Origin: a virus
Virus genome (UHGV): UHGV-1610946
Direction: 5' to 3' (one strand)
DNA: 13,320 nt
Positions 1-13,320 of the stretch are shown here, piece after piece. Below the pieces are notes generated by a model. It did no database searches, was not told the DNA's origin, and worked only from the letters and a program-made list of their open reading frames with translations. Within the stretch, counting starts at the first letter, position 1; every line of letters begins with the position of its first letter. The position numbers and the translations under genes are program-made.

Positions 1-2
1 AT

Positions 3-1250
3 AAATTTAAAGCCTATATTGCTGGTTTTGGCTCGGGCAAAACATGGGTTGGGTGTGGCGGCATATGCAAGGGGATTTGGGAGCATCCAGGTATAAATCA
101 GGGATATTTTGCGCCAACGTATCCCCAAATTCGCGATATTTTTTACCCTACAGTGGAAGAAGTTGCTGCTGACTGGGGATTGAACGTAAAAATTAATGAG
201 GGAAATAAAGAGGTTCACTTTTATTACGGACGCCAGTATCGGGGAACCACTATCTGCAGATCGATGGAGAAGCCACAAACGATCGTCGGTTTCAAAATTG
301 GTAATGCGTTGGTGGATGAACTGGACATTTTGCCGAAGGAAAAAGCCAGAACGGCGTGGCGCAAGATAATTGCGCGTATGCGTTATAAGATTGATGGACT
401 TCGCAACGGTATTGACGTTACAACCACGCCGGAAGGATTCAAATTTGTCTACGAGCAGTTTGTTAAAGCCGTGCGTGAAAAAACAGAGCTGGCCTCACTG
501 TATGGTCTGGTGCAGGCATCTACTTTCGATAATGAAAAGAACCTGCCAGCAGATTACATTCCTTCGCTTCTTGAATCATACCCTCCAGAGCTGATTAAAG
601 CCTATCTGCGAGGACAGTTTACTAACCTGACAAGTGGTACTGTTTACCATCAGTTTGACCGGAAACTGAATAATTGCGAAGAAGTGGAGCAGCCAGGGGA
701 GCCGATTTATATTGGGATGGATTTTAACGTTGGAAAGATGGCGGGAATCGTCCATGTGCTGCGTTTGGGGCTTCCATGTGCGGTAACTGAAATCATCAAT
801 GCCTACGATACGCCGGATATGATCCGCATCATTAAAGAACGCTTCTGGCTGTATGATGGGAATGATTACCGGAAAGTGAGGGAAATTTATATTTATCCAG
901 ATGCTTCCGGGGATTCCAGAAAATCAAGTAACGCAAGTACGACGGATATAGCCCAGCTTAAGCAGGCTGGTTTTAACGTTGTGGTGAACAGCTCGAACCC
1001 GCCAGTAAAAGATCGCGTTAACTCAATGAATGCAATGTTCTGCAATGCCAATGGTGAGCGTCGCTATAAAGTTAATGTGAAGCGTTGCCCGTTATATGCC
1101 GAATCTCTGGAGCAACAGGTCTGGGATGAGAAGGGGGAGCCTGATAAAAAATCTGGCAATGATCACCCGAATGATGCCGGAGGTTATTTCATCGTTAAGC
1201 AATTCCCTATTGTCAAACCGACCGGAAGAGTCACATCACTTCGGATTTAA
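3..1250 (+). CDS. Terminase large subunit, 5'-truncated (gene continues upstream of the window)
   Basis: The frame of ORF 153..1250 is open back to position 3 with no stop. Translation from position 3 gives KFKAYIAGFGSGKTW, a Walker A P-loop (AxxxxGKT), so the ATPase domain starts at the window edge; 153 is only an internal GTG. Downstream acidic motifs (IGMDFN, IYPDASGD, HPNDAGG) fit the terminase nuclease domain. It sits directly upstream of the portal gene. Confidence 0.85.
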   Translation, partial: KFKAYIAGFGSGKTWVGCGGICKGIWEHPGINQGYFAPTYPQIRDIFYPTVEEVAADWGLNVKINEGNKEVHFYYGRQYRGTTICRSMEKPQTIVGFKIGNALVDELDILPKEKARTAWRKIIARMRYKIDGLRNGIDVTTTPEGFKFVYEQFVKAVREKTELASLYGLVQASTFDNEKNLPADYIPSLLESYPPELIKAYLRGQFTNLTSGTVYHQFDRKLNNCEEVEQPGEPIYIGMDFNVGKMAGIVHVLRLGLPCAVTEIINAYDTPDMIRIIKERFWLYDGNDYRKVREIYIYPDASGDSRKSSNASTTDIAQLKQAGFNVVVNSSNPPVKDRVNSMNAMFCNANGERRYKVNVKRCPLYAESLEQQVWDEKGEPDKKSGNDHPNDAGGYFIVKQFPIVKPTGRVTSLRI

Positions 1251-1252
1251 TT

Positions 1253-2659
1253 ATGGCTGATATATCAACACCCAACCTCGACTATAACGATATGCTGGAG
1301 GCGTGGGATATTAACGACGCACTGATGGGCGGTACGCTTGAAATGCGCAGGCAGGGGGAAAATTATCTCCCAAAATGGCCTAACGAAGATGAAGACGCTT
1401 ATAAAAAACGCCTGTCTGTGGCTACGCTACTTCCTGTGTATGAAGAAAGCATCAAGCAAAATATTGGGCGCATATTTGCAGAGCCGACAGTATTGAGTGA
1501 GGAAACGCCGGCAAAAATCAGGGAATATGCAGAAAATATCGACATGGAGGGAAGCCGACTGGATGTGTGGGCGCAGCAATTTTTCAGCCTCGCATTTCAG
1601 TATGGTGTGGCACATGCGCTGGTGGACTATCCACGAACGGATATGAAAGAGATTCGGACAAAAGCCGATGAAAACGCGGCCGGTAGTCGTCCGTACGTTA
1701 CGATGCTGAATCCACGCCAGGTTATTGGATGGAAATCGAAAGTTGAAAAAGGGAAAGTTGTTCTCACTGATTTGCGTATAAAAGAGGTCATCATTATTGA
1801 TGGTGATGATTTCGGGCAGAAGAAGGTGGAGCAGATCCGCCATATTATGCCCCGTCGAGTTGAAATTTATCGACGTAGCGAAGGCACTAATGGCGAATCT
1901 GTCTGGACGCTTCATGAGTCATGGAATACCAGCCGTGATGATATTCCTCTGGTAACACTGTACACGAAGAAAACAGGATTTATGCGTGGTACACCGCCAT
2001 TGCTTAATCTTGGCTTGCTGAATATCAAGCACTGGCAAAGCCAGAGCGAGCAGGACAATATTCTTCATGTTGCCCGCGTTCCATTGCTGGTGGCCTACGG
2101 GCTGGACAGGAATGAAGAACTGACGGTTGGTGCATCCACCGCTACGATTTTTGAGGACAGAACAAAAAATGGCCTCGAATATGTTGAACATAGTGGCGCA
2201 GCGATAGAATCTGGCGAAACATCACTTGAGAAGCTGGAAAATCAGATGCGTCATGCCGGCGCTAAACTTCTGCGTGCTGAAAATACATCCACCAAATCTG
2301 TTGATCAGACTAATGAAGAGCGAATGCAGGAAAACTCGCCGCTTTATACAATGGCGAACTCCCTCGAAGATGCCCTCGATAATATTCTCCAGATAATGGC
2401 GGAATGGATCGGAGAGAGTTGCGGTGGCAATGTGGATGTGCGCACTGAACTGGATGTATCTGCCCAGGTGTTTGACTCATCCTCCGCGCTGGCTGTTCAG
2501 TCATTGCGTCAGGGCGGTGATATACGTCAGATTGATGCGATTCGGGTGTTGCAGGCGTTGAAATTTATCGATCAGGATTCCCGTCCAGAGGAAGTGATCG
2601 ATGAATTAAAAAATCAGAGTGTAATGCTGATGGAAATCAATGATGCAAACCGTGAATGA
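1253..2659 (+). CDS. Portal protein (putative)
   Basis: 468-aa ORF starting 2 nt after the terminase stop and lying between TerL and the MuF-like gene, the canonical portal position. Size fits portal proteins. No diagnostic motif was verified from memory. Confidence 0.7.
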   Translation: MADISTPNLDYNDMLEAWDINDALMGGTLEMRRQGENYLPKWPNEDEDAYKKRLSVATLLPVYEESIKQNIGRIFAEPTVLSEETPAKIREYAENIDMEGSRLDVWAQQFFSLAFQYGVAHALVDYPRTDMKEIRTKADENAAGSRPYVTMLNPRQVIGWKSKVEKGKVVLTDLRIKEVIIIDGDDFGQKKVEQIRHIMPRRVEIYRRSEGTNGESVWTLHESWNTSRDDIPLVTLYTKKTGFMRGTPPLLNLGLLNIKHWQSQSEQDNILHVARVPLLVAYGLDRNEELTVGASTATIFEDRTKNGLEYVEHSGAAIESGETSLEKLENQMRHAGAKLLRAENTSTKSVDQTNEERMQENSPLYTMANSLEDALDNILQIMAEWIGESCGGNVDVRTELDVSAQVFDSSSALAVQSLRQGGDIRQIDAIRVLQALKFIDQDSRPEEVIDELKNQSVMLMEINDANRE

Positions 2660-3755
2660 ACGGCTGCGTGATGAATCAATTGCTCATGCAGTCTGGATAT
2701 CCCGCTATAGCACTGGCGTGGCTGCCAGAATGGTGAAAATACTGAATGACAGCGATGCGGAACTTACTGCTCGCCTGCTGATAGCACTGGACAGCCTCGA
2801 TCCAGGTAGTTTTACCGTTAAGCGCCTGGAGTCACTTCTGGCGAGCGTCAGAGAGGTTAACCGCACTGCTATTAACAGCATGTTTACCAGTCTCTCCGGA
2901 GAGCTGAACGAGCTGGCAATTTATGAGGCTGGTTATCAGTTAAGTCTGTTTGATTCTATGCTACCTGATTTTGTTGCTGATGTTCACCCTCTGGTTGGTA
3001 TCTCTCCTGATGCACTTTATGCCGCTGCAATGGCGCGACCATTTCAGGGACGACTGCTCAGTGAGTGGGCCTCAGATCTTGAGGCGGATCGGCTCAGACG
3101 CATAACAAATACAGTGCGTCAGGGTTTTTTGCTGGGGGATACCAATGAGCAGATCGCAAGAAAAATTCGGGGACATGTCAGTAAGGGATTTCAGGATGGT
3201 GCATTGCAGATGAGCCGGGCTAATGCGGCCAGCATTGCAAAAACAGCGGTTGGACATCTTGCTGCTACTGCCCGTGAGAGTTTTGCCAGCGCGAATAATG
3301 ATTTGATTAAGGGTAAGCAATGGTTATCAACGCTTGATAATCGTACTACGCCACAATGTCGAATCAGGGATCGCCTCAAATATACGCTGAATAATAAACC
3401 TGTAGGTCACAGCGTGCCTTATTTGCAGGGGCCGGGAAAAATTCATTTCTGCTGCCGCTCAACGGAAACGTTCATTCTGAAATCAGCGAAGGAACTGGGT
3501 ATTGATGTTCGCGATATTTCCCCGGCTGAGCGGGCCAGCATGGATGGCGTGGTGGCCGGAGATACAACCTACAGGGAATGGTTTTTGCGTCAGCCTTACA
3601 CCAGACAAAAACAGATTGTGGGGGAAACCCGAGCAAAGCTGATTCGGGATGGTGGTATGTCGCCAGATGAATTTTACACCGATAAAGGCGAATGGCTGAC
3701 GCTGAAGCAGCTCCGTGAGCGTGATGCACAGGTATTCAGAAAAGCAGGGATTTAA
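2640..3755 (+). CDS. Head morphogenesis protein, Mu F-like / SPP1 gp7 family
   Basis: 371-aa ORF overlapping the portal stop by 20 nt. Contains LDNRTTPQCR, which resembles the conserved motif of Phage_Mu_F-type proteins. Position between portal and scaffold is typical. The start could instead be a downstream in-frame codon. Confidence 0.75.
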   Translation: MMQTVNERLRDESIAHAVWISRYSTGVAARMVKILNDSDAELTARLLIALDSLDPGSFTVKRLESLLASVREVNRTAINSMFTSLSGELNELAIYEAGYQLSLFDSMLPDFVADVHPLVGISPDALYAAAMARPFQGRLLSEWASDLEADRLRRITNTVRQGFLLGDTNEQIARKIRGHVSKGFQDGALQMSRANAASIAKTAVGHLAATARESFASANNDLIKGKQWLSTLDNRTTPQCRIRDRLKYTLNNKPVGHSVPYLQGPGKIHFCCRSTETFILKSAKELGIDVRDISPAERASMDGVVAGDTTYREWFLRQPYTRQKQIVGETRAKLIRDGGMSPDEFYTDKGEWLTLKQLRERDAQVFRKAGI

Positions 3756-3774
3756 ATAAATCATTTATTACAAC

Positions 3775-3802
3775 AGGCTACCTTCGGGTGGCCTTTTTTA
3801 TT
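3775..3802 (+). terminator. Intrinsic-terminator-like hairpin (7-bp stem, cUUCGg tetraloop, T6 run)
   Basis: GGCTACC(3776-3782) TTCG GGTGGCC(3787-3793) pairs as a 7-bp stem including one G-U wobble, followed directly by TTTTTTATT. Lies 20 nt after the MuF-like stop. Confidence 0.6.
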
Positions 3803-3859
3803 GCTGCGATCCGGATGGTGAGCAGCGTAACTGTCGGAAGACTTAAACCAGGTACTAAT

Positions 3860-4624
3860 ATGAAACTGAAAACGGTCGAGATTAACGGAAAACAATACGC
3901 AGAAATTGATACTGCTGGCCTGCCAGTTTATGTGCACGACGATGGTAAAGAAATTGGCTTCGATGCACCGCTGGCGACAAAAAAAATTACAGAGCTTAAT
4001 AGCGAGGCAAAAAATCATCGCCTGGCTAAAGAAGCTGCAGAGGAAAAACTGGCTAAGTTTGCCGCTATCGAAGACCCGAAGAAGGCGATCGAGGCACTGG
4101 AAATGCTGTCAAAAATCGACCAGAAAAAGCTGCTCGATGCGGGACAGGTTGACCAGGTTAAGGCAGAAATTACGAAAAATTTTCAGCAGCAATTAGATGA
4201 AGAAAAGCAACGCTCTCAGATGCTGGAGAAGCAGCTTTACGATTCTATGATTGGCGGTAGTTTTGCGGGTTCAAAATATATTGCCGATAAAATTGCGATC
4301 CCGGCAGATTTATTACAATCACGCTTCGGGCAGGCATTCAAAGTGGAAGAAGGGAGGATCGTTGCTTATGACGCTTCCGGCAACAAAATTTATTCCCGCG
4401 CGAAGCCTGGCGAACTGGCGCAGTTTGATGAGGCGCTGGAGTTCCTTGTCGAAAATTACCCTCAGAAAGACTACATCCTGAAAGCCAGTGGCAACAATGG
4501 CGGCGGCTCCCGTCCGACACAGCATGATATTGGTCAGAAAACGATGAAACGCTCTGCTTTTGATGCACTGGATGTTGCAGGTAAGCAAAACGCATTGAAA
4601 GACGGTATCACAATCGTTGATTAA
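3860..4624 (+). CDS. Putative head scaffolding protein
   Basis: Lies between the MuF-like gene and the major capsid gene. The product is rich in charged residues, with heptad-like stretches (KEAAEEKLAKFAAIEDPKKAIEALEMLSKIDQKKL) typical of scaffold proteins. Start is uncertain: the listed ORF begins at 3788 inside the terminator hairpin, which is implausible; in-frame ATGs occur at 3815 and 3860, the latter with a weak AGG upstream. Confidence 0.5.
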   Translation: MKLKTVEINGKQYAEIDTAGLPVYVHDDGKEIGFDAPLATKKITELNSEAKNHRLAKEAAEEKLAKFAAIEDPKKAIEALEMLSKIDQKKLLDAGQVDQVKAEITKNFQQQLDEEKQRSQMLEKQLYDSMIGGSFAGSKYIADKIAIPADLLQSRFGQAFKVEEGRIVAYDASGNKIYSRAKPGELAQFDEALEFLVENYPQKDYILKASGNNGGGSRPTQHDIGQKTMKRSAFDALDVAGKQNALKDGITIVD

Positions 4625-4633
4625 CACATTTGT

Positions 4634-4653
4634 CAGCTTCCGGATGGGAGCTG
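4634..4653 (+). other. Stable hairpin in the scaffold-capsid intergenic region (8-bp stem, GGAT loop, no T-run)
   Basis: CAGCTTCC(4634-4641) GGAT GGGAGCTG(4646-4653) gives seven Watson-Crick pairs plus one G-U. Begins 10 nt after the scaffold stop. No U-tract follows, so it is not a canonical terminator. Confidence 0.35.
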
Positions 4654-4722
4654 GTGTCAGGGCTGGATAGCTCATTACTCCATCTATTCACAATTACGCA
4701 AATTTTTAAGGAATATTTAATT

Positions 4723-5862
4723 ATGGCTGGAAATACCCTGACCGGGTTGATCCCGACTATTTATACCGCCCTGGATGTTGTATCCCGTGAGCAGGTAGGT
4801 TTTATCCCTGCGGTAGCAAAAAACGCAAAAGCTGACGCCGCAGCAAAAGATCAGACGGTAACCGCGCCAGTTGCGCCTGAGGCGAAAACCGAAGATATCG
4901 TACCGGGGCCGTCAGCTCCGAATACCGGTGATCAAAATATTGGCACTGTTGATGTAAAAATTACTAAATCCAAAATGGCACCGGTTAAATGGAATGGTGA
5001 AGAACAACTGGCTCTTGGTCCTTCAGGGACTTACAACACCATTCTGGCTGATCAGTTCAAGCAGGCTTTTCGCGCCCTTGCAAACGAGGTTGAGGCTGAT
5101 CTTGGTGCGTTGTATTTCGGTGCTTCCCGCGCCGTGGGAACCGCAGGGACAACGCCGTTTGGTGTTAAAGATGATCTTTCTGATGCTGCTCTGGCTCGTC
5201 AGGTTCTGGAGGATAACGGCGCACCGACAACCGATCTGCAGATGGTGCTTGGCTCCACTGCCATTGCTAATTTGCGCGGAAAACAGTCTGTATTGTTTAA
5301 AGTGAATGAATCCGGCACTGAACAGCTACTGCGTGAGGGCGTGTTGGGGCGTCTGGAGGGATTCAATATTCACAGTTCGGCAGGTGTGAAACGAGCGCCA
5401 AAGGTTGCTGCAACTGGTTATCTCGTGAATGGAGAGAAAAAAGAAGGCGATGTTCTTATTTCCATTGATACTGGTTCGGGGAGTATTTCTGCAGGTCAGA
5501 TTGTTACGTTCGCTGGTGATCCGAATCAGTATGTTGTGGCAGCAGCGACCAGCAATCTGATTACTCTTGCAGCGCCCGGACTGCGTCAGGATCTGGCCGA
5601 TGATACTGCCATCACAGTTGTTGGGGCCTTTACTGCAAATATGGCGTTTGATCGCAACGCGTTTCTGCTGGCATCCCGTACTCCGGCAATGCCGGAAGGT
5701 GGCGATAATGCTGATGATGTAATGAATGTTACGGACCCGATTTCAGGGATTACGTTCCAGATTGCACTGTATCGTCAGTATCGCCAGGTGCGCTATGAAG
5801 TTGGACTGGCATGGGGTGTTTCATCAGTGAAGCCGGCACATGGTTGTCTGATTCTTGGTTAA
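4723..5862 (+). CDS. Major capsid protein (putative)
   Basis: 379 aa from ATG 4723, which has a good Shine-Dalgarno (AAGGA at 4708-4712, 10-nt spacer). The listed ORF starts at 4630 with no RBS. Position is immediately after the scaffold gene. Family assignment is from context only. Confidence 0.65.
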   Translation: MAGNTLTGLIPTIYTALDVVSREQVGFIPAVAKNAKADAAAKDQTVTAPVAPEAKTEDIVPGPSAPNTGDQNIGTVDVKITKSKMAPVKWNGEEQLALGPSGTYNTILADQFKQAFRALANEVEADLGALYFGASRAVGTAGTTPFGVKDDLSDAALARQVLEDNGAPTTDLQMVLGSTAIANLRGKQSVLFKVNESGTEQLLREGVLGRLEGFNIHSSAGVKRAPKVAATGYLVNGEKKEGDVLISIDTGSGSISAGQIVTFAGDPNQYVVAAATSNLITLAAPGLRQDLADDTAITVVGAFTANMAFDRNAFLLASRTPAMPEGGDNADDVMNVTDPISGITFQIALYRQYRQVRYEVGLAWGVSSVKPAHGCLILG

Positions 5863-5871
5863 ACATTCAAA

Positions 5872-5895
5872 CGGGGCTTCGGCCCCATTTTTAAT
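5872..5895 (+). terminator. Intrinsic-terminator-like hairpin (5-bp GC stem, cUUCGg tetraloop, T5 run)
   Basis: GGGGC(5873-5877) TTCG GCCCC(5882-5886) followed by ATTTTTAAT. Lies 10 nt after the capsid stop. Confidence 0.6.
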
Positions 5896-5904
5896 GGGGG
5901 GCAT

Positions 5905-6081
5905 ATGGCCGGATTAACTAAAGAGCAAAGAGCACAGCGTGAAGCCGCACAAAAAACGCAAATTGAGTTAGTGGTTATGGTGACCGATTATCAGATGTTT
6001 CCCGGCGCACCAACTATCGCTAATGTTCATCCTGATGAAGTTGACAACTGGAAGGCTATGGGCTGGAAAACTCAGGAGTAA
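5905..6081 (+). CDS. Small hypothetical protein (58 aa), absent from the supplied ORF track
   Basis: ATG 5905 is preceded by a G6 run (5896-5901). The frame is open for 58 codons (MAGLTKEQRAQREAAQKTQIELVVMVTDYQMFPGAPTIANVHPDEVDNWKAMGWKTQE) to TAA 6079-6081, and the next gene's Shine-Dalgarno (AGGAG) overlaps its last codons. It fills an otherwise non-coding gap between the capsid and connector genes. Confidence 0.4.
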   Translation: MAGLTKEQRAQREAAQKTQIELVVMVTDYQMFPGAPTIANVHPDEVDNWKAMGWKTQE

Positions 6082-6084
6082 CAC

Positions 6085-6480
6085 ATGATCACTTACGTGA
6101 CCTGTGATGACGTTGATAATGCGTTTGGGAACGCCTGGACGAGTGAGAACGCTAAAAATAAAGCTGTTTTAATGGCTAATGCCTGGCTTAATGGCTTCAA
6201 CCTGAAAATTAACCCATCCCGTATTCCGGAAGAGGTAAAACTTGCGGGAGCATATGCAGCCAGAATTGCCTCATTTGGTAAGTTGTTTCAGCAGAAAAAT
6301 GATTCTGGCGTTGTTATCAGTAAAGCCGTGTCGGCTGACGGGGTCAGTGTATCGAAATCATTTTCTGAGTTGCCAGCAAACAGCACTGCATTGCTTGAAC
6401 CCGATTTACAGCTTGCGATAGCACTGCTGAAACCGTACGGACTTAGTCGCTCACAAGTCAGGGTTGTGAGGGGGGGATAA
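6085..6480 (+). CDS. Putative head-tail connector / head completion protein
   Basis: 131-aa ORF with Shine-Dalgarno AGGAG 6 nt upstream. It is the first of four small, translationally coupled genes between capsid and major tail, the canonical position for gp6-like connector proteins. No motif verified. Confidence 0.45.
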   Translation: MITYVTCDDVDNAFGNAWTSENAKNKAVLMANAWLNGFNLKINPSRIPEEVKLAGAYAARIASFGKLFQQKNDSGVVISKAVSADGVSVSKSFSELPANSTALLEPDLQLAIALLKPYGLSRSQVRVVRGG

Positions 6481-6863
6481 TGGGGCTTCGTGAAGAGATT
6501 CAGTCAGAGGTTGCCGCTGCTTTTGATGAGGATTTAGCGGACGCCGTGAGTGATTTTTCTGGTTATTACGTTACGCACCGGCACTGGGATCCTGTGACGG
6601 AAACTGGCGGCGAATCCACCGCAATCTATACCGGGCGAGGCGTGTTGACACGTTATAAGCTGGGCAGAATTGATGGGATTAATATTTTGCATGGTGACCT
6701 TAAATTAACCGCTCTGGTATGCGAGGTTACGGATAAACCAGCTGTCGACCATATTATTGAGATTTATGATCCTGTATCAAGGCAGTTACAACGATACGAG
6801 GTAATTACAGCAAGTTTAGATCCTTCCGCATCAGTTTACTCTATCCAGTTAAGGAGAGCGTAA
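6480..6863 (+). CDS. Putative head-tail adaptor / head closure protein
   Basis: 127-aa ORF whose start overlaps the previous stop (TAATG), with a G-rich Shine-Dalgarno (GAGGGGGGG) upstream. Assigned by size and position in the neck-gene block. Confidence 0.4.
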   Translation: MGLREEIQSEVAAAFDEDLADAVSDFSGYYVTHRHWDPVTETGGESTAIYTGRGVLTRYKLGRIDGINILHGDLKLTALVCEVTDKPAVDHIIEIYDPVSRQLQRYEVITASLDPSASVYSIQLRRA

Positions 6864-7244
6864 ATGGCAAAGGCATGGGATATAGAACCGTCAATATTTG
6901 CCGGGATGATTGAGGAAGATGTAGGGCTGAAGATTCGCTACATCGCTATGCAGATTCTTACTGCTATTGATATTGCTGCTCCGGTTGATACCGGACGTTT
7001 CAGAAATAACAACCTGGTGTCGTTACAGCATCCCGATTTTGGTATATCTGATAACGTGGATCCGAACGGTACGATTGCTGTTCAGCGTGGGATCGGGGTT
7101 ATTTCGAAAGCTGCAAATTACGGGGTTATTTATATCCAGAATAACCTTCCTTATGCAGAGGCTCTTGAAAACGGTCATTCACAACAAGCGCCAACTGGCG
7201 TGTATGCCAACGCTTTTTATGGTGTTTTACAGGCTTACAAATGA
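6864..7244 (+). CDS. Putative neck/tail-completion protein (HK97 gp10-like)
   Basis: 126-aa ORF with Shine-Dalgarno AAGGAGA upstream. Contains PVDTGRFRNN, which resembles the DTG-containing motif I recall for HK97 gp10-family proteins. Position fits. Confidence 0.45.
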   Translation: MAKAWDIEPSIFAGMIEEDVGLKIRYIAMQILTAIDIAAPVDTGRFRNNNLVSLQHPDFGISDNVDPNGTIAVQRGIGVISKAANYGVIYIQNNLPYAEALENGHSQQAPTGVYANAFYGVLQAYK

Positions 7245-7633
7245 AGTTTACTGAAATCAGAAATACGGTTATTTCCAGAATGACGGCACAGACGATTATT
7301 GATGGAAAAGACGTATTGTATCCGAACGGGCCAACGTTCGATCCTTCCGGTAAGTTAATCTGGGCGCGGTTAAGTAATATTCCCGGGCAGGCTGGGGTTA
7401 ATGAAATTGGCGCGGGGCCGGTTGTTTATCGCACGGGGATAATCATTATTCAGTTATTTGTCCCCGCAGGTTCTGGTTCAAAACTCATTACTGAGACAGC
7501 CGATAAATTGCGGGAACTGTTTGAGTTTCAGGATGACGATCGTCTCAGTTACCAGGCTGTTTCCTCAATAGCCGTCGGCGAAAAGAATGGCTGGTTCCAG
7601 CTTAATCTTCAAATTCCATATCGCGCGCTCTAG
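7241..7633 (+). CDS. Putative tail terminator / tail completion protein
   Basis: 130-aa ORF with ATGA start-stop overlap with the previous gene, lying immediately upstream of the major tail gene (the position of lambda gpU-type proteins). Confidence 0.4.
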   Translation: MKFTEIRNTVISRMTAQTIIDGKDVLYPNGPTFDPSGKLIWARLSNIPGQAGVNEIGAGPVVYRTGIIIIQLFVPAGSGSKLITETADKLRELFEFQDDDRLSYQAVSSIAVGEKNGWFQLNLQIPYRAL

Positions 7634-7659
7634 CGCAATTAATGACATAGGAGGCTTCT

Positions 7660-8622
7660 GTGAGTTCAGGTGCAAAGGTTATCTCGGCATTTATCCGGGA
7701 GACAGTTGCAGGCACTACGCCAGCAAGTGGTGACTGGAGTTTATTAAAACGCACAAGCTGGGGAGTAAAACCCACCCAGAATAAAGGCGAAAATAATGAG
7801 ATTGGTGGCTCCCGGATGGCTCAGGGGGCGACGCCTGGCACTGTGGATGTCGGCGGTGATGTTGGTACCAAATTTCGCTGGGGTCAACATGATGATTTTC
7901 TTGCATCCTGTTTCGGCGCGGAATGGTCAGGCGATTCTCTGACAATGGGGAATGAGCGAATAACATTTTCTCTGGCGACCTATGCGTCCGATGTCGGAAT
8001 TGCCTCTGTCGTCAGAGGAGCGCAGGTTGGCTCATGGAAAATGCAGATCCCTAACGACGGCGATATTACAGCGACCGTAACCTTTGCCGGGCTGGGCTGG
8101 GAAACAAAGGCCGATGATACGAATTTTATCAAAGGCAAACCTGTGGATAGTGCAGGAAAGTTACGCTATTCGTTTAAGGAGGTTTCAGCAGTAAGCCTGA
8201 ATGGTGTTGCCGGAGGTAACGGTTTTTGTATCGACAGTTTTGATATTCAGTTCGATAACAAACTCCAGACACAGCGTTGTATCGGGACTGGCTCGCCTTA
8301 TGCAGGAGCAAATATTCCGACTACTTTTACACCGTCCGGTACGGTGACGCTTTCATGGTCTAAAGCCGCGTGGGAAATCTGGAGTAAAACACTGACTGGA
8401 GAAACAGTTCCGTTCAGCTTCACGCTTTCGAATGGAGAGGGGGCATACACTTTCAGTTTCCCGAAGGTTCAGGTGTCAGGTGAATGGCCTGATGGGGGTA
8501 ATACTGACATTATCCAGGTTCAATTGAGCATTACCGCAGCAGATGAAGCACCTACGATAACCAGAAAAAAATGCTCCCCGACTGCCGTGATCGCAAAAGC
8601 CAGTGCTGATGCGATTAGTTGA
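7660..8622 (+). CDS. Major tail (tube) protein (putative)
   Basis: 320-aa ORF with GTG start and a strong Shine-Dalgarno (AGGAGG at 7648-7653, 6-nt spacer). Lies directly upstream of the chaperone frameshift pair and tape measure gene, the conserved major tail position. Product is rich in Gly/Ser/Thr. Confidence 0.65.
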   Translation: MSSGAKVISAFIRETVAGTTPASGDWSLLKRTSWGVKPTQNKGENNEIGGSRMAQGATPGTVDVGGDVGTKFRWGQHDDFLASCFGAEWSGDSLTMGNERITFSLATYASDVGIASVVRGAQVGSWKMQIPNDGDITATVTFAGLGWETKADDTNFIKGKPVDSAGKLRYSFKEVSAVSLNGVAGGNGFCIDSFDIQFDNKLQTQRCIGTGSPYAGANIPTTFTPSGTVTLSWSKAAWEIWSKTLTGETVPFSFTLSNGEGAYTFSFPKVQVSGEWPDGGNTDIIQVQLSITAADEAPTITRKKCSPTAVIAKASADAIS

Positions 8623-8634
8623 TTTTCCGTTATT

Positions 8635-8661
8635 CCCCCTGTGGTACTGCACTACAGGGGG
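8635..8661 (+). promoter_or_regulatory. Hairpin after the major tail gene whose 3' arm overlaps the likely RBS of the chaperone gene
   Basis: CCCCCTGT(8635-8642) and ACAGGGGG(8654-8661) are perfect reverse complements (8-bp stem, up to 11 bp with a wobble). No T-run follows. The GGGGG of the right arm is the only Shine-Dalgarno-like element for ATG 8671. Confidence 0.45.
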
Positions 8662-8670
8662 ACGCATTGA

Positions 8671-9132
8671 ATGAGGTTATGGATGTTTATTCTTAATCAG
8701 AAAATTATCATCGGTGGAGAACGCTGGTTTACGCCAATGAAGGACTTAAAACCTGTAGACGGGTTAAAACTGTTGGTGGCAAGCAGCGATAACGATCAGT
8801 ATCGCTCCCGTAATGCATTAATCCGTCGTCACATTGAGAAAATGGATGCCAGTTTGCACGTCGGAACGAAGGAGTTTGATATTTCAAAGGTTTCCGAGGT
8901 AGATTCTGTTGATGATTTACTCATTGATAATGCTGCTCGTTATCTGCTGAAAGACTGGAAAGGGGTTGGTGAACTGGTTAATGGTGCTGAGGTTGCACTG
9001 GAATATACGCCAGAACGAGGGATCGCGCTGCTTAAGCAGAATCCAGAGTTGTACTGGCAGATCCTTGCAGAAGCAGCCAGCATCGCCCAGGGTAAAGAGC
9101 AGCAGAAGCAGGATACGATAAAAAAGCCATAG
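8671..9132 (+). CDS. Tail assembly chaperone (lambda gpG-like)
   Basis: 153-aa acidic ORF between the major tail and tape measure genes. A slippery heptamer lies 4 nt before its stop, and an overlapping -1 frame stays open for about 105 further codons. Start could instead be an in-frame ATG at 8683 or 8737. Confidence 0.6.
   Translation: MRLWMFILNQKIIIGGERWFTPMKDLKPVDGLKLLVASSDNDQYRSRNALIRRHIEKMDASLHVGTKEFDISKVSEVDSVDDLLIDNAARYLLKDWKGVGELVNGAEVALEYTPERGIALLKQNPELYWQILAEAASIAQGKEQQKQDTIKKP
9120..9126 (+). promoter_or_regulatory. Programmed -1 ribosomal frameshift slippery site A_AAA_AAG
   Basis: In the chaperone frame the codons are ATA AAA AAG CCA TAG. The heptamer A AAA AAG (9120-9126) is a classic Lys-tRNA slippery sequence. 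The -1 frame has no stop from 9096 to 9440. Confidence 0.6.
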
Positions 9133-9440
9133 CCGCCCAGCGGTGGTTATCGGAGTTCGGGGGAGAAAGGGGGGAAAAGGCAAGATGGAAGCGAGAAAAA
9201 CTCAGGTTGCCACCGATACCGGAACCAGAAATAGACCCGGTGCTTAAGGAATTGTTGTACGCCTATTCGGTAATATCCCGTGCCCGACGTTATGCTGGAA
9301 TGACCGGGGTGCCTTTGCCTTTATCTCTGACAGAGATAAATGAATATTTAGCCACTCATCCGGTATTGATTGAGCGCGATGAGTTTGAAGCAGTGATCTT
9401 TGCACTGGATGACCAGTATTTTCAGGATCAGTGTGTGTAG
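9123..9440 (+). CDS. Frameshift extension of the tail assembly chaperone (lambda gpT-like part of a G-T fusion)
   Basis: Frame is open from 9096 to the stop at 9438-9440 and is entered by a -1 slip at 9120-9126. The supplied ORF 9207..9440 has no ATG (it begins at TTG) and no RBS, consistent with expression only as a fusion. Predicted fusion is about 255 aa. Confidence 0.55.
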   Translation, partial: KAIAAQRWLSEFGGERGEKARWKREKLRLPPIPEPEIDPVLKELLYAYSVISRARRYAGMTGVPLPLSLTEINEYLATHPVLIERDEFEAVIFALDDQYFQDQCV

Positions 9441-9560
9441 TTGTTAATTACGTACACTCTGTTACAGAGATGTGATGGTGTCTTTAATTAAATCGATGAT
9501 GCTCCTGGAGAAAAGCATTGCGTGGCCTCGTAATCGCTATATCTACTATTATGTCGCCTG

Positions 9561-9587
9561 AAACCCACTTCGGTGGGCTTTTTGTTG
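9561..9587 (+). terminator. Terminator-like hairpin (5-bp stem, cUUCGg tetraloop, T5 run) upstream of the tape measure gene
   Basis: CCCAC(9564-9568) TTCG GTGGG(9573-9577) followed by CTTTTTGTTG. It lies in a 163-bp non-coding gap between the chaperone extension and the tape measure start, 17 nt before that gene's GGAG Shine-Dalgarno. Confidence 0.5.
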
Positions 9588-9603
9588 TCTGGAGTTTTAA
9601 TAA

Positions 9604-12600
9604 ATGGCAGAGCAAACCTCGCGTCTCGCAATAATTATTGATAGCACTGGAGCAAAAAATAATGCTGACAATCTGACCTCCTCATTAGTCAAAATGACGC
9701 AGGCCGGGGAAACTGCTGCAAATAGCGCAGGGAAAGTGACTAAGGCAACAGAAGATGAGAAGAACGCGCTCGCAAAATTAAAAGCAGCTATTGATCCAGT
9801 TGGTGCCGCAATTGATACTGTCGGTCGACGCTATTCTGAATTAAAGAAATTTTTCGATAAAGGGCTTATTGATAAAGAAGAATATGAATTTCTTGTCCGT
9901 AAACTTAATGAAACCACAGAGGAATTGAGCGGGGTTGCGCAAGCGCAGAGAGAAGCCGAGAAGGCCGGAAAACTTGCTGCCGCCCAGCAGGAAGCGCAGG
10001 CTCAGGCCTTTCAAAGAATGCTGGACAAGATCGACCCTCTGGCTGCGGCGCTAAGAAATCTTGAACAACAGCAGGATGAACTTAATGCTGCGTTTGCATC
10101 CGGGAAAATAAATGGTTCTCAGTTTGAGAATTATAGCCGAAAAATACAGGAAACACGGCGAGAGCTTACCGGAGAGGCTCAGGCAGAGCGAGAAGCAGCA
10201 AAAGCGCATGATGAACAGGTTGCTGCTTTGCAACGTCTGATTGCTCAACTTGACCCTGTCGGAACTGCTTTTAATCGTCTGGTAGAACAACAGAAACAGC
10301 TCAATGAAGCAAAAGCTAAGGGGATGCTCTCTCCTGAAATGTATGAGGAACTTTCTGGAAAACTTCGTGCTATGCGGAGTGAGCTTGAGGTTACTCAATC
10401 TCAATTAAGCAAAACCGGAATGTCGGCAAAACAAACGGCTTTTGCTATGCGCATGTTGCCTGCACAAATGACGGATATTGTTGTTGGGTTGTCCACTGGT
10501 CAGTCGCCTTTTATGGTGTTAATGCAGCAGGGCGGCCAGCTAAAAGATATGTTCGGTGGGATTGGCCCGGCGATCAAAGGTGTTGGTTCTTATGTGCTGG
10601 GATTAATTAATCCTTTTACCCTGGCCGCAGCAGCCGTTGGCGTCTTAGGGCTGGCTTACTATAAAGGCTCTCAGGAGCAGGACGAATTTAATAAATCTCT
10701 TATTCTTACCGGAAATCAGTTGGGGACAACCAGCGGGCAATTGGCCGATATAGCTCAACGTGCCGGGAATGCGGCTGATTCGACAACTGGCGCTGCGGCG
10801 GCAGTATTAAACCAGCTTGTGCGTTCGGGAAAGGTAGCGAGCAGTTCGCTGGAGCAAGTGACGACAGCGATAGTAAAAACGAGCGAAGTAACAGGAATAT
10901 CAACCGAACAACTGGTTAATGACTTCAATGAAATTGCAAAGGATCCTGTCAGTGCCATATCAAAACTTAATGATCAGTACCATTTTCTGACAATTGCGAC
11001 TTATAACCAGATTAAGGCGCTACAGGATGAAGGGAACCAGCAGGAGGCCGCCCGCATTGCGACAGAAGCATACTCATCCTCAATGATCCAGCGCACCAAC
11101 CAGATTAAAGAAAATCTTGGTTATCTTGAGGCTGCATGGAAAGCTGTCGCAGACTCCGCAAAATGGGCATGGGATTCCATGCTGGACATTGGCCGTGAGG
11201 CCTCCCTTGATCAAAAAATCTCAGATGTTCTCCGTCAAATTGATGAAATAGAAAAAAATACCCGACCCGGAGTTTTCGGGTTAGGTGGCATTGGAGATGG
11301 CGGAGCTCAAAATAAAAGGCTGGCACGATTAAAGCAGCAATTGGGCGTACTTCAAGCAGAAAAAATTGCTCAGGACGTCCTAAATTCATCAATAAACGAT
11401 TACAACAAGCGACAACAGGAAGGAATTGAACTCAGACAGAGAGCAGATGCCTTTTCAAAACAATATCAGACCCGGGAGCAGCAGAGAGCTAGTGAACTTG
11501 CAAAACTGGAAAAGCTAAAGAGTCAGTATTCAAAGGAAGAATATAATAATTTTATCGCTCAAATAAATGAGCGTTATAAAGATCCAAAGCAACCAAAGGC
11601 GAAAGGTTATTCGGATGATGCTGCCCAACGAATGATTGATCATCTGAATCAACAGAATGCGTTACTAAGTTCACAAACTGAATTAACCGTTAAATTAAGT
11701 TCCTCTGAACAGGAACTGGTTAAGTGGCGTCAGCAGATTGCCGACCTGGAGTCACGACCGTCATCGAAATTAACCCAGGATCAGAAATCGCTTCTCTTAC
11801 ACCGGGAAGAAATAACCGCGTTGATGGAGAAAAATGTTGCGATTGAAAAAAATAACAGGCTAATCAAGGAATCCGCCGAAATAGCTGCATGGCGTGATTT
11901 ATTGCAGGCTTCGATTGATAATCGTCAACAGGGGTATGATATTCAGATTGCTGGTTATGGGGTTGGCGATAAAAATCAGCAACGCCAGCAGGAATTACTG
12001 CGGATTGAACGTGAATATAACAATCAGCGTCTGCAACTTGAACGTGACTATGCAGATAAATCCCGTGGGATGTCAAATCATGTTTTTCAGGAGAAAATGC
12101 AGGCTCTGAATGATGCTCTGGAACGAGAAAAAGAAATTGTCAGACAGAAAAACGAGCAGCTCGATATTCAGGCAGGAGACTGGGTTAGTGGTGCCTCCCA
12201 GGGATTCAATAACTGGCTGGATGACACTAAGGATATCAGTGAGCAGATAAAATCAACCACGACTCAGATGTTTGATGGAATGACCGATGCGCTGGGTGAT
12301 TTTGTCACGACAGGCAAGGCAAATTTTCGTTCTTTCGCTACTTCCGTGATTTCGGATCTTAGTCGAATAGCATTAAAGGCTTCAATTACTGGGATTTTCG
12401 ACAGCATTAGTAACAGTTCTTCGGGGGGGATTTTAGGAACTATCGGGAGTGCTATTAGTAAATTTATTCCGAATGCAAAGGGCGGTGTTTATGAGTCTCC
12501 GTCATTGAACACGTATTCGAACGGTATTTATGATTCCCCGCAATTTTTTGCTTTTGCAAAAGGGGCTGGTGTTTTTGGTGAGGCTGGTCCGGAAGCCATT

Positions 12601-12837
12601 ATGCCATTAACACGAACATCCGATGGTTCTCTTGGTGTCAGAGCTATTAATAGTAAAAGTGGTAATGGAGGCGGAGATATTACCTATGCCCCTGTATACC
12701 AAATCACTATTCAAAATGACGGCCAGAATGGAGAGATTGGCCCTCAGGCAATAAAAGCACTTATGGGGATGGTTGATCAGCGGGTGCAGGGCAATCTGTT
12801 AAATATGCGACGTGATGGGGGAATGTTAAGTGGCTAA
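9604..12837 (+). CDS. Tail tape measure protein (lambda gpH-like)
   Basis: 1077-aa ORF with Shine-Dalgarno GGAG 9 nt upstream, lying immediately downstream of the frameshifted chaperone pair and upstream of gpM/gpL homologues. It has a long coiled-coil-like N-terminal region with three internal repeats of roughly 70-80 aa, a hydrophobic Gly/Ala-rich segment ([35 protein letters not shown]), and a C-terminal [11 protein letters not shown] segment that resembles lambda-family tape measure C-termini as I recall them. Confidence 0.9.
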
Positions 12838-12871
12838 TACGGAAGAATTTCACTGGTTACCAGAGGATGGA

Positions 12872-13168
12872 ATGAAAACAGAAAATAAACCATCGATAAA
12901 AACTGTAAGATTTGGCGATGGTTATGAGCAACGAAGTCCAAATGGACTTAATCATTCTCTGCGCGTTTTCACCTGTGATTTCAAAGTTGAGGCGAATGAA
13001 CGTGATTCATTTGAAAAATTTTTAGCCCGGCATGAAGGCTATAAATCTTTTTTTTGGCGCCCGCCTGGTATTAACAGAAAAATCAGAGTGGTGTGTCGAA
13101 CGTGGTCAGCGACAGAACATATCACCTATACCGATTTTTCGTGTCAGTTTGACGAAGTGGTGATCTGA
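12872..13168 (+). CDS. M: Minor tail protein, lambda gpM-like
   Basis: Translation from ATG 12872 (MKTENKPSIKTVRFGDGYEQRSPNGLN ... FDEVVI) aligns with lambda gpM as I recall it (MKTFRWKV...VRKVRFGDGYSQRAPAGLN ... FEQVVN), at similar length. Shine-Dalgarno GAGGA lies just upstream. The listed ORF starts at GTG 12830, overlapping the tape measure stop; 12872 is preferred by homology. Confidence 0.85.
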   Translation: MKTENKPSIKTVRFGDGYEQRSPNGLNHSLRVFTCDFKVEANERDSFEKFLARHEGYKSFFWRPPGINRKIRVVCRTWSATEHITYTDFSCQFDEVVI

Positions 13169-13281
13169 TGCAGGACATACAACAGGAAACGCTGAATGAA
13201 TGCATTCGTGCGGAGCAGTCGGCCAGCGTGGTGCTCTGGGAAATCGACCTGACCGAGGTAGGCGGGGATCGCTACTTTTTC
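13168..13281 (+). CDS. L: Minor tail protein, lambda gpL-like (N-terminal 38 codons only; truncated by adapter sequence)
   Basis: ATG overlaps the gpM stop (TGATG). Translation MQDIQQETLNECIRAEQSASVVLWEIDLTEVGGDRYFF is near-identical to the lambda gpL N-terminus as recalled (MQDIRQETLNECTRAEQSASVVLWEIDLTEVGGERYFF). The reading frame then runs into adapter at 13282. Confidence 0.85.
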
Positions 13282-13320
13282 AGATCGGAAGAGCGTCGTG
13301 TAGGGAAAGAGTGTAGATCT
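13282..13320. other. Illumina TruSeq adapter sequence (sequencing/assembly artefact)
   Basis: AGATCGGAAGAGCGTCGTGTAGGGAAAGAGTGTAGATCT is an exact 39-nt match to the reverse complement of the 3' end of the Illumina universal adapter (the standard read-2 trimming sequence). Confidence 0.95.

Follow-up and report, generated by a model that had tools for sequence, protein, structure and literature searches.

The window analyzed here, which is the whole 13,320-nucleotide stretch of virus genome UHGV-1610946, consists of genuine prophage DNA that gives way, after position 13281, to 39 bases of synthetic oligonucleotide. These terminal bases are routine adapter contamination and not a real biological feature, and we hold it to be very nearly certain that they are a sequencing-library artifact generated by adapter read-through on a fragment of an Escherichia coli prophage. 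Nothing that was found contradicts this reading. The features on both sides of the junction are collected in Table 1.

Table 1. Positions of the adapter remnant and of the prophage features that border it in the window.
Feature	Position	Strand	Evidence
Genuine prophage DNA, terL to the first 38 codons of L	1..13281	+	Identity to NZ_AP040205.1; Pfam
gpM-like minor tail protein, complete, 112 aa	12830..13168	+	Pfam PF05939 Phage_min_tail, E 1.2e-31; RefSeq WP_000024051.1 "phage tail protein"
Minor tail protein L, genuine 5' part, 38 codons (MQDIQQ...GGDRYFF)	13168..13281	+	100% identical to the start of WP_001152425.1
Synthetic Illumina adapter remnant	13282..13320	+	Exact unique match; prefix of a published 58-mer; entered by no homologue

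A pattern search of the window placed AGATCGGAAGAGCGTCGTGTAGGGAAAGAGTGTAGATCT at its very end with 0 mismatches, where the sequence reads ...GGGGATCGCTACTTTTTC followed directly by AGATCGGAAGAGCGTCGTGTAGGGAAAGAGTGTAGATCT. When both strands were searched with up to 3 mismatches allowed, this 39-mer was found at that single site, to which its 13-mer core, AGATCGGAAGAGC, was likewise confined, and it was matched in 0 of 200 dinucleotide-preserving shuffles of the window. An earlier note on this DNA had described the last 39 nucleotides as an exact match to the Illumina TruSeq adapter, and direct comparison bears this out: they are identical at 39 of 39 positions to bases 1 to 39 of the 58-mer AGATCGGAAGAGCGTCGTGTAGGGAAAGAGTGTAGATCTCGGTGGTCGCCGTATCATT, which 10.1101/2021.08.13.456193 quotes as its read 2 adapter for cutadapt (-A) and PMC11020696 gives as an adapter for libraries. 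The 39-mer itself occurs in 147 papers of the literature searched. The window stops at base 39 of the 58, ahead of CGGTGGTCGCCGTATCATT. Reverse-complemented, the 58-mer reads AATGATACGGCGACCACCGAGATCTACACTCTTTCCCTACACGACGCTCTTCCGATCT, which is known as the TruSeq universal adapter, and by established library chemistry the leading A of the terminal bases occupies the A-tail/adapter T-overhang position. These comparisons identify positions 13282 to 13320 as the start of the Illumina read-2 read-through sequence, the reverse complement of a TruSeq/NEBNext-type universal (un-indexed i5) adapter. Dual-indexed designs carry an 8-nt i5 index after ...GAGTGT; here, GAGTGT runs straight into AGATCT without such an index, which, given the known adapter designs, suggests a single-indexed library prepared with the universal adapter. 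Elsewhere in the window there was no second adapter copy, distal adapter piece, or Nextera transposase sequence, and the window gives no evidence of adapter at its start or of an internal chimera.

Upstream of the junction, the window is an ordinary, known, and very common E. coli Rac-type lambdoid prophage. Every base from 1 to 13281 is identical to the chromosome of E. coli NR3736 (NZ_AP040205.1, locus L003 9001-22281), and the RefSeq names around that copy (trkG, ynaK, and ydaY) identify the element as a Rac-type lambdoid prophage. At least 80% of these 13,281 bases is covered in 696 complete E. coli genomes, as well as in 10 phage records comprising the vB_EcoS-606R9 group and Salmonella phage SPF_0923; because the integrated prophage is common in E. 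coli chromosomes, the source of the DNA need not have been a phage particle. The module runs through terminase large subunit, DUF4055 portal, Mu F-like minor head, DUF6651, P22-type coat, head-tail genes, tail terminator, tail tube, tail chaperone, tape measure, M, and L', and Pfam matches confirm it. The left end of the window lies approximately 51 to 52 nucleotides inside terL (L003 8949-9001), with neither adapter nor an obvious boundary, and is therefore a truncation as well.

Several further features were observed within the prophage sequence. The tape-measure gene (9604-12837, 1077 aa) is intact in the window; despite near-identical DNA, its annotation in E. coli 266917_2 includes an internal stop, and the vB_EcoS-683R6 record splits it into two CDSs. 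Two codons ahead of the TAG that ends the ydaY-like tail chaperone open reading frame (8671/8773-9132), the 0 frame contains a slippery heptamer, A_AAA_AAG, at 9120-9126; the −1 frame, open over 9126-9440, encodes a product with a weak Pfam match to Phage_TAC_18 (E 6e-4, below the cut-off). Judged by sequence, the heptamer and the open −1 frame look like a programmed −1 frameshift of the lambda G/GT type; in RefSeq, YdaY and a hypothetical protein are annotated there as separate CDSs. A terminator-like hairpin (CCCAC-TTCG-GTGGG, then CTTTTTGTTG) occupies window positions 9564-9587 within a 163-nt noncoding gap that separates the chaperone genes from the tape-measure gene, and a second, imperfect hairpin was seen by eye after the tail tube gene, at approximately 8633-8659. 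Rfam and tRNA scans of the window returned nothing.

The junction was read directly from the alignments. The last base shared by the window and all homologues is 13281 (C); at 13282 the window has A in place of the native T (TGC, Cys). In a three-way alignment, the sequences agree up to ...TACTTTTTC, after which the window continues as AGATCGG... and both relatives continue as TGCAATGAGCAGAACGAG... Native L DNA past this point begins TGCAATGAGCAG..., encoding CNEQNEKGE..., and strings of the native continuation read TGCAATGAGCAGAACGAGAAAGG and TGCAATGAGCAGAACGAGAAAGGAGAGTCTGTCACCTGG. By position, the terminal 39 bases agree with the native continuation at 11 of 39 sites, which is the level expected by chance. 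All alignments listed from approximately 3,600 records of E. coli and 100 of phages end at 13281, and this holds both for prophages that are 100% identical and for L genes of 87 to 93% identity (HK630, PhiR63_1, and others). A 34-nt pattern spanning the junction had 0 matches in the viral, metagenome, and genome contig collections searched.

At the protein level, the open reading frame starting from the ATG at 13168 encodes MQDIQQETLNECIRAEQSASVVLWEIDLTEVGGDRYFF followed by RSEERRVGKECRS, for a total of 51 aa, of which the part after MQDIQQ...GGDRYFF is translated adapter. The description of this frame as a gpL-like sequence that runs to GGDRYFF and then into adapter was thus correct, the genuine portion being a gpL-like N terminus that is identical at 38 of 38 residues to WP_001152425.1 ("phage minor tail protein L") and at 35 of 38 to lambda L. 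The earlier note also held that lambda gpL continues differently after RYFF, and it does: native L and lambda L alike read ...RYFF-CNEQNEKGE... and extend to 232 aa. As in lambda, L starts directly after M, in the order H-M-L, with its start overlapping the M stop; the gpM-like gene and the L start codon share one base. Full-length native L belongs to Pfam PF05100 (Phage_tail_L, E 4.5e-98, residues 29-230). No Pfam family, including Phage_tail_L, was matched by the 51-aa translation of the window, because only 10 residues of the domain precede the junction, and the chimeric 51-aa peptide was absent from a collection of 15 billion proteins. The L of the window is therefore a truncated PF05100 member and not a variant.

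These results bear on whether the terminal bases could be native sequence, that is, a real C-terminal gpL-like variant ending ...RYFFRSEERRVGKECRS... The reading frame does remain open through the 39 bases, which favors such a variant weakly, as 13 stop-free codons are unremarkable and one of three forward frames is open. Against it, the variant would have to replace the whole Phage_tail_L domain (residues 29-230) with a string identical to a synthetic oligonucleotide, a coincidence expected at approximately 4^-39 per position and seen in none of the 200 shuffles. DNA-level tests of native occurrence covered 5,426 complete E. coli genomes (28 Gb) and 50,697 phage records; the full 39-mer was found in 0 of the 5,426 genomes, and no gpL homologue among the matches listed carries it or extends into it. 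The same string is also present in unrelated taxa, next to unrelated flanks, where it runs on as adapter. We regard the native variant as refuted, with a probability close to nil, and the warning of the earlier note against annotating the last 13 codons as protein was justified.

The distribution of the 39-mer in public sequence follows the same pattern. At least 120 unrelated IMG/VR contigs (loci L004-L123) carry it, and each of the 122 listed copies is preceded by a different 20-mer (122 in all); 107 of these copies point outward and lie within 100 nt of the sequence end, and among the 117 listed copies that have following bases, 104 run on into CGGTGGTCGCCGTATCATT, often succeeded by poly-A. 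Unrelated flanks, outward terminal placement, and continuation as adapter are the behavior of a synthetic oligonucleotide and not of a gene segment. Many of the listed contigs share sample 3300045988, and two (L032 and L083) carry adapter at both ends. Adapter was further found in seven GenBank phage records (KT254133.1, PQ571273.1, OU509537.1, MW202825.1, OR360270.1, PQ462667.1, and OQ703102.1), whose hosts are Chryseobacterium, Bifidobacterium, Klebsiella, Enterococcus, and E. coli. KT254133.1 (phiFenriz) contains all 39 nt internally, at 59297-59335 of 65,760. The six other records have 32 to 33 nt, which in some cases are terminal and in others underlie annotated genes (for a hypothetical protein and an endonuclease). 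In five of the seven records, adapter bases 1 to 33 alone were matched, in line with the un-indexed universal adapter being the form in which AGATCT follows directly. The 5,426 E. coli genomes yielded one partial match, the 28-nt string AGATCGGAAGAGCGTCGTGTAGGGAAAG inside fliI on the chromosome of E. coli AREA_R485, which RefSeq lists as a complete genome (NZ_CP123349.1 702311-702338; L125 301-328). This fliI is annotated as a frameshifted pseudogene, and the string, itself evident contamination, is probably an assembly or polishing artifact that created a false pseudogene.

Internal copies of this kind raise the question of whether the adapter in UHGV-1610946 lies inside a longer chimeric contig, in which two unrelated fragments were mis-joined and the window merely stops within the adapter. 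Precedents exist in the 7 of 122 listed IMG/VR copies whose nearest sequence end is more than 200 nt away, in the internal 39 nt of KT254133.1, and in the 28 nt inside E. coli fliI. Two considerations weigh against a mis-join: the window ends in adapter that points outward, which is the geometry of the 107 terminal copies described above, and its odd length of 13,320 would fit a sequence that ends here better than an arbitrary cut. On the basis of that geometry, and of the stop inside the adapter, the end of the window is likely to be the end of the contig. We consider a chimeric join very improbable, and under it the terminal bases would remain an artifact.

Read-through on a prophage fragment would account for this arrangement as follows. 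Prophage DNA would have been broken at 13281 during library preparation, and the fragment would have been A-tailed and ligated to Illumina Y-adapters. With an insert shorter than the read, read 2 would, by established Illumina chemistry, run into the adapter (AGATCGGAAGAGCGTCGTGTAGGGAAAGAGTGT AGATCT...); had that read been left untrimmed or incompletely adapter-trimmed, the assembler could have extended the contig with it as the only extension available, leaving the true continuation unfollowed and the sequence ending inside the adapter. The true path was probably lost on entry into a multi-copy L/K region, with a local coverage gap as the alternative. The 1 kb that precedes the junction is complete in 711 genomes (approximately 13% of complete E. 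coli), where its median copy number is 1. The native DNA of equal length that follows it (L003 22282-23281, the rest of L and K) is present in 4,327 of 5,426 genomes (80%), with a median of 3 and up to 15 copies. Homology to other lambdoid phages begins at 13146, position 13281 lies 136 nt into the tail-tip (L/K) region, and a 47-nt exact run at 13207-13253 is common to the window and lambda L. With the sharp change in copy number across the junction, a lineage-specific head/tail-shaft module meets the pan-lambdoid tail-tip module at a mosaic boundary. Short-read assembly graphs usually break in multi-copy regions, and the position of 13281 inside the multi-copy tail-tip region is the likely reason for the contig break.

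A real boundary at 13281 would offer another account of why the true continuation is absent, in the form of an over-represented or preferred DNA end, a cleavage site, or a prophage truncated or rearranged after L codon 38; the adapter itself would still be an artifact. Such a boundary gains some plausibility from the frequent decay of Rac-type prophages, from some relatives in which the tape-measure gene is split or interrupted by a stop, and from the IS200 and truncated fiber gene found downstream in the NR3736 copy. Set against this, 13281 has no special feature, falls within a run of codons in a conserved gene, and lies away from the terminase end, which is where a headful packaging site is expected. 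Fragmentation at random is expected to produce ends everywhere, a single read-through read suffices to produce the terminal 39 bases, and the multi-copy repeat already explains a break at this position. We find a real boundary unsupported and very improbable.

For read-through on a prophage fragment, the preferred reading, the practical consequences are matters of housekeeping and data hygiene only. Positions 13282 to 13320 should be trimmed, gene L should be treated as 3'-partial with 38 genuine codons, and the peptide RSEERRVGKECRS should be kept out of protein sets. Because the remainder of L as well as K, I, J, lom, and the fiber genes are missing, the element should count as incomplete. 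The earlier note had held that the phage sequence is not complete here and that the rest of the tail-tip module must lie on another contig. Its incompleteness is evident from the native locus, where the remainder of L is followed on its 3' side by K (C40 peptidase), I, J, and lom in the RefSeq neighborhood of NZ_AP040205.1; the missing genes may be on another contig or may not have been assembled at all. As the source reads were incompletely adapter-trimmed, screening the other contigs of this assembly for adapter is warranted. In public data, many viral contigs carry this oligonucleotide, as do several phage records in GenBank, and part of it lies within one gene of a complete E. coli genome in RefSeq.

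Compared with known systems, the genuine part of the L gene resembles lambda gpL in 35 of its 38 N-terminal residues and in the gene order H-M-L, and differs from it in that 38 of 232 codons are present and the next 13 are adapter. The terminal bases are like the Illumina universal adapter in their orientation, with insert and then adapter as read-through expects, and in their outward placement at a sequence end, as in at least 107 public viral contigs; they differ in that 39 of 58 nt are in the window and the CGGTGGTCGCCGTATCATT part is missing. Adapter in deposited assemblies is a class of artifact that is flagged for trimming by NCBI submission checks (PMC5887294). The window shares with that class a synthetic oligonucleotide attached to genuine sequence, translated here as a false protein end, and differs from it in nothing of substance. 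Overall, we conclude that the end of the window is a routine instance of adapter contamination in a deposited assembly.
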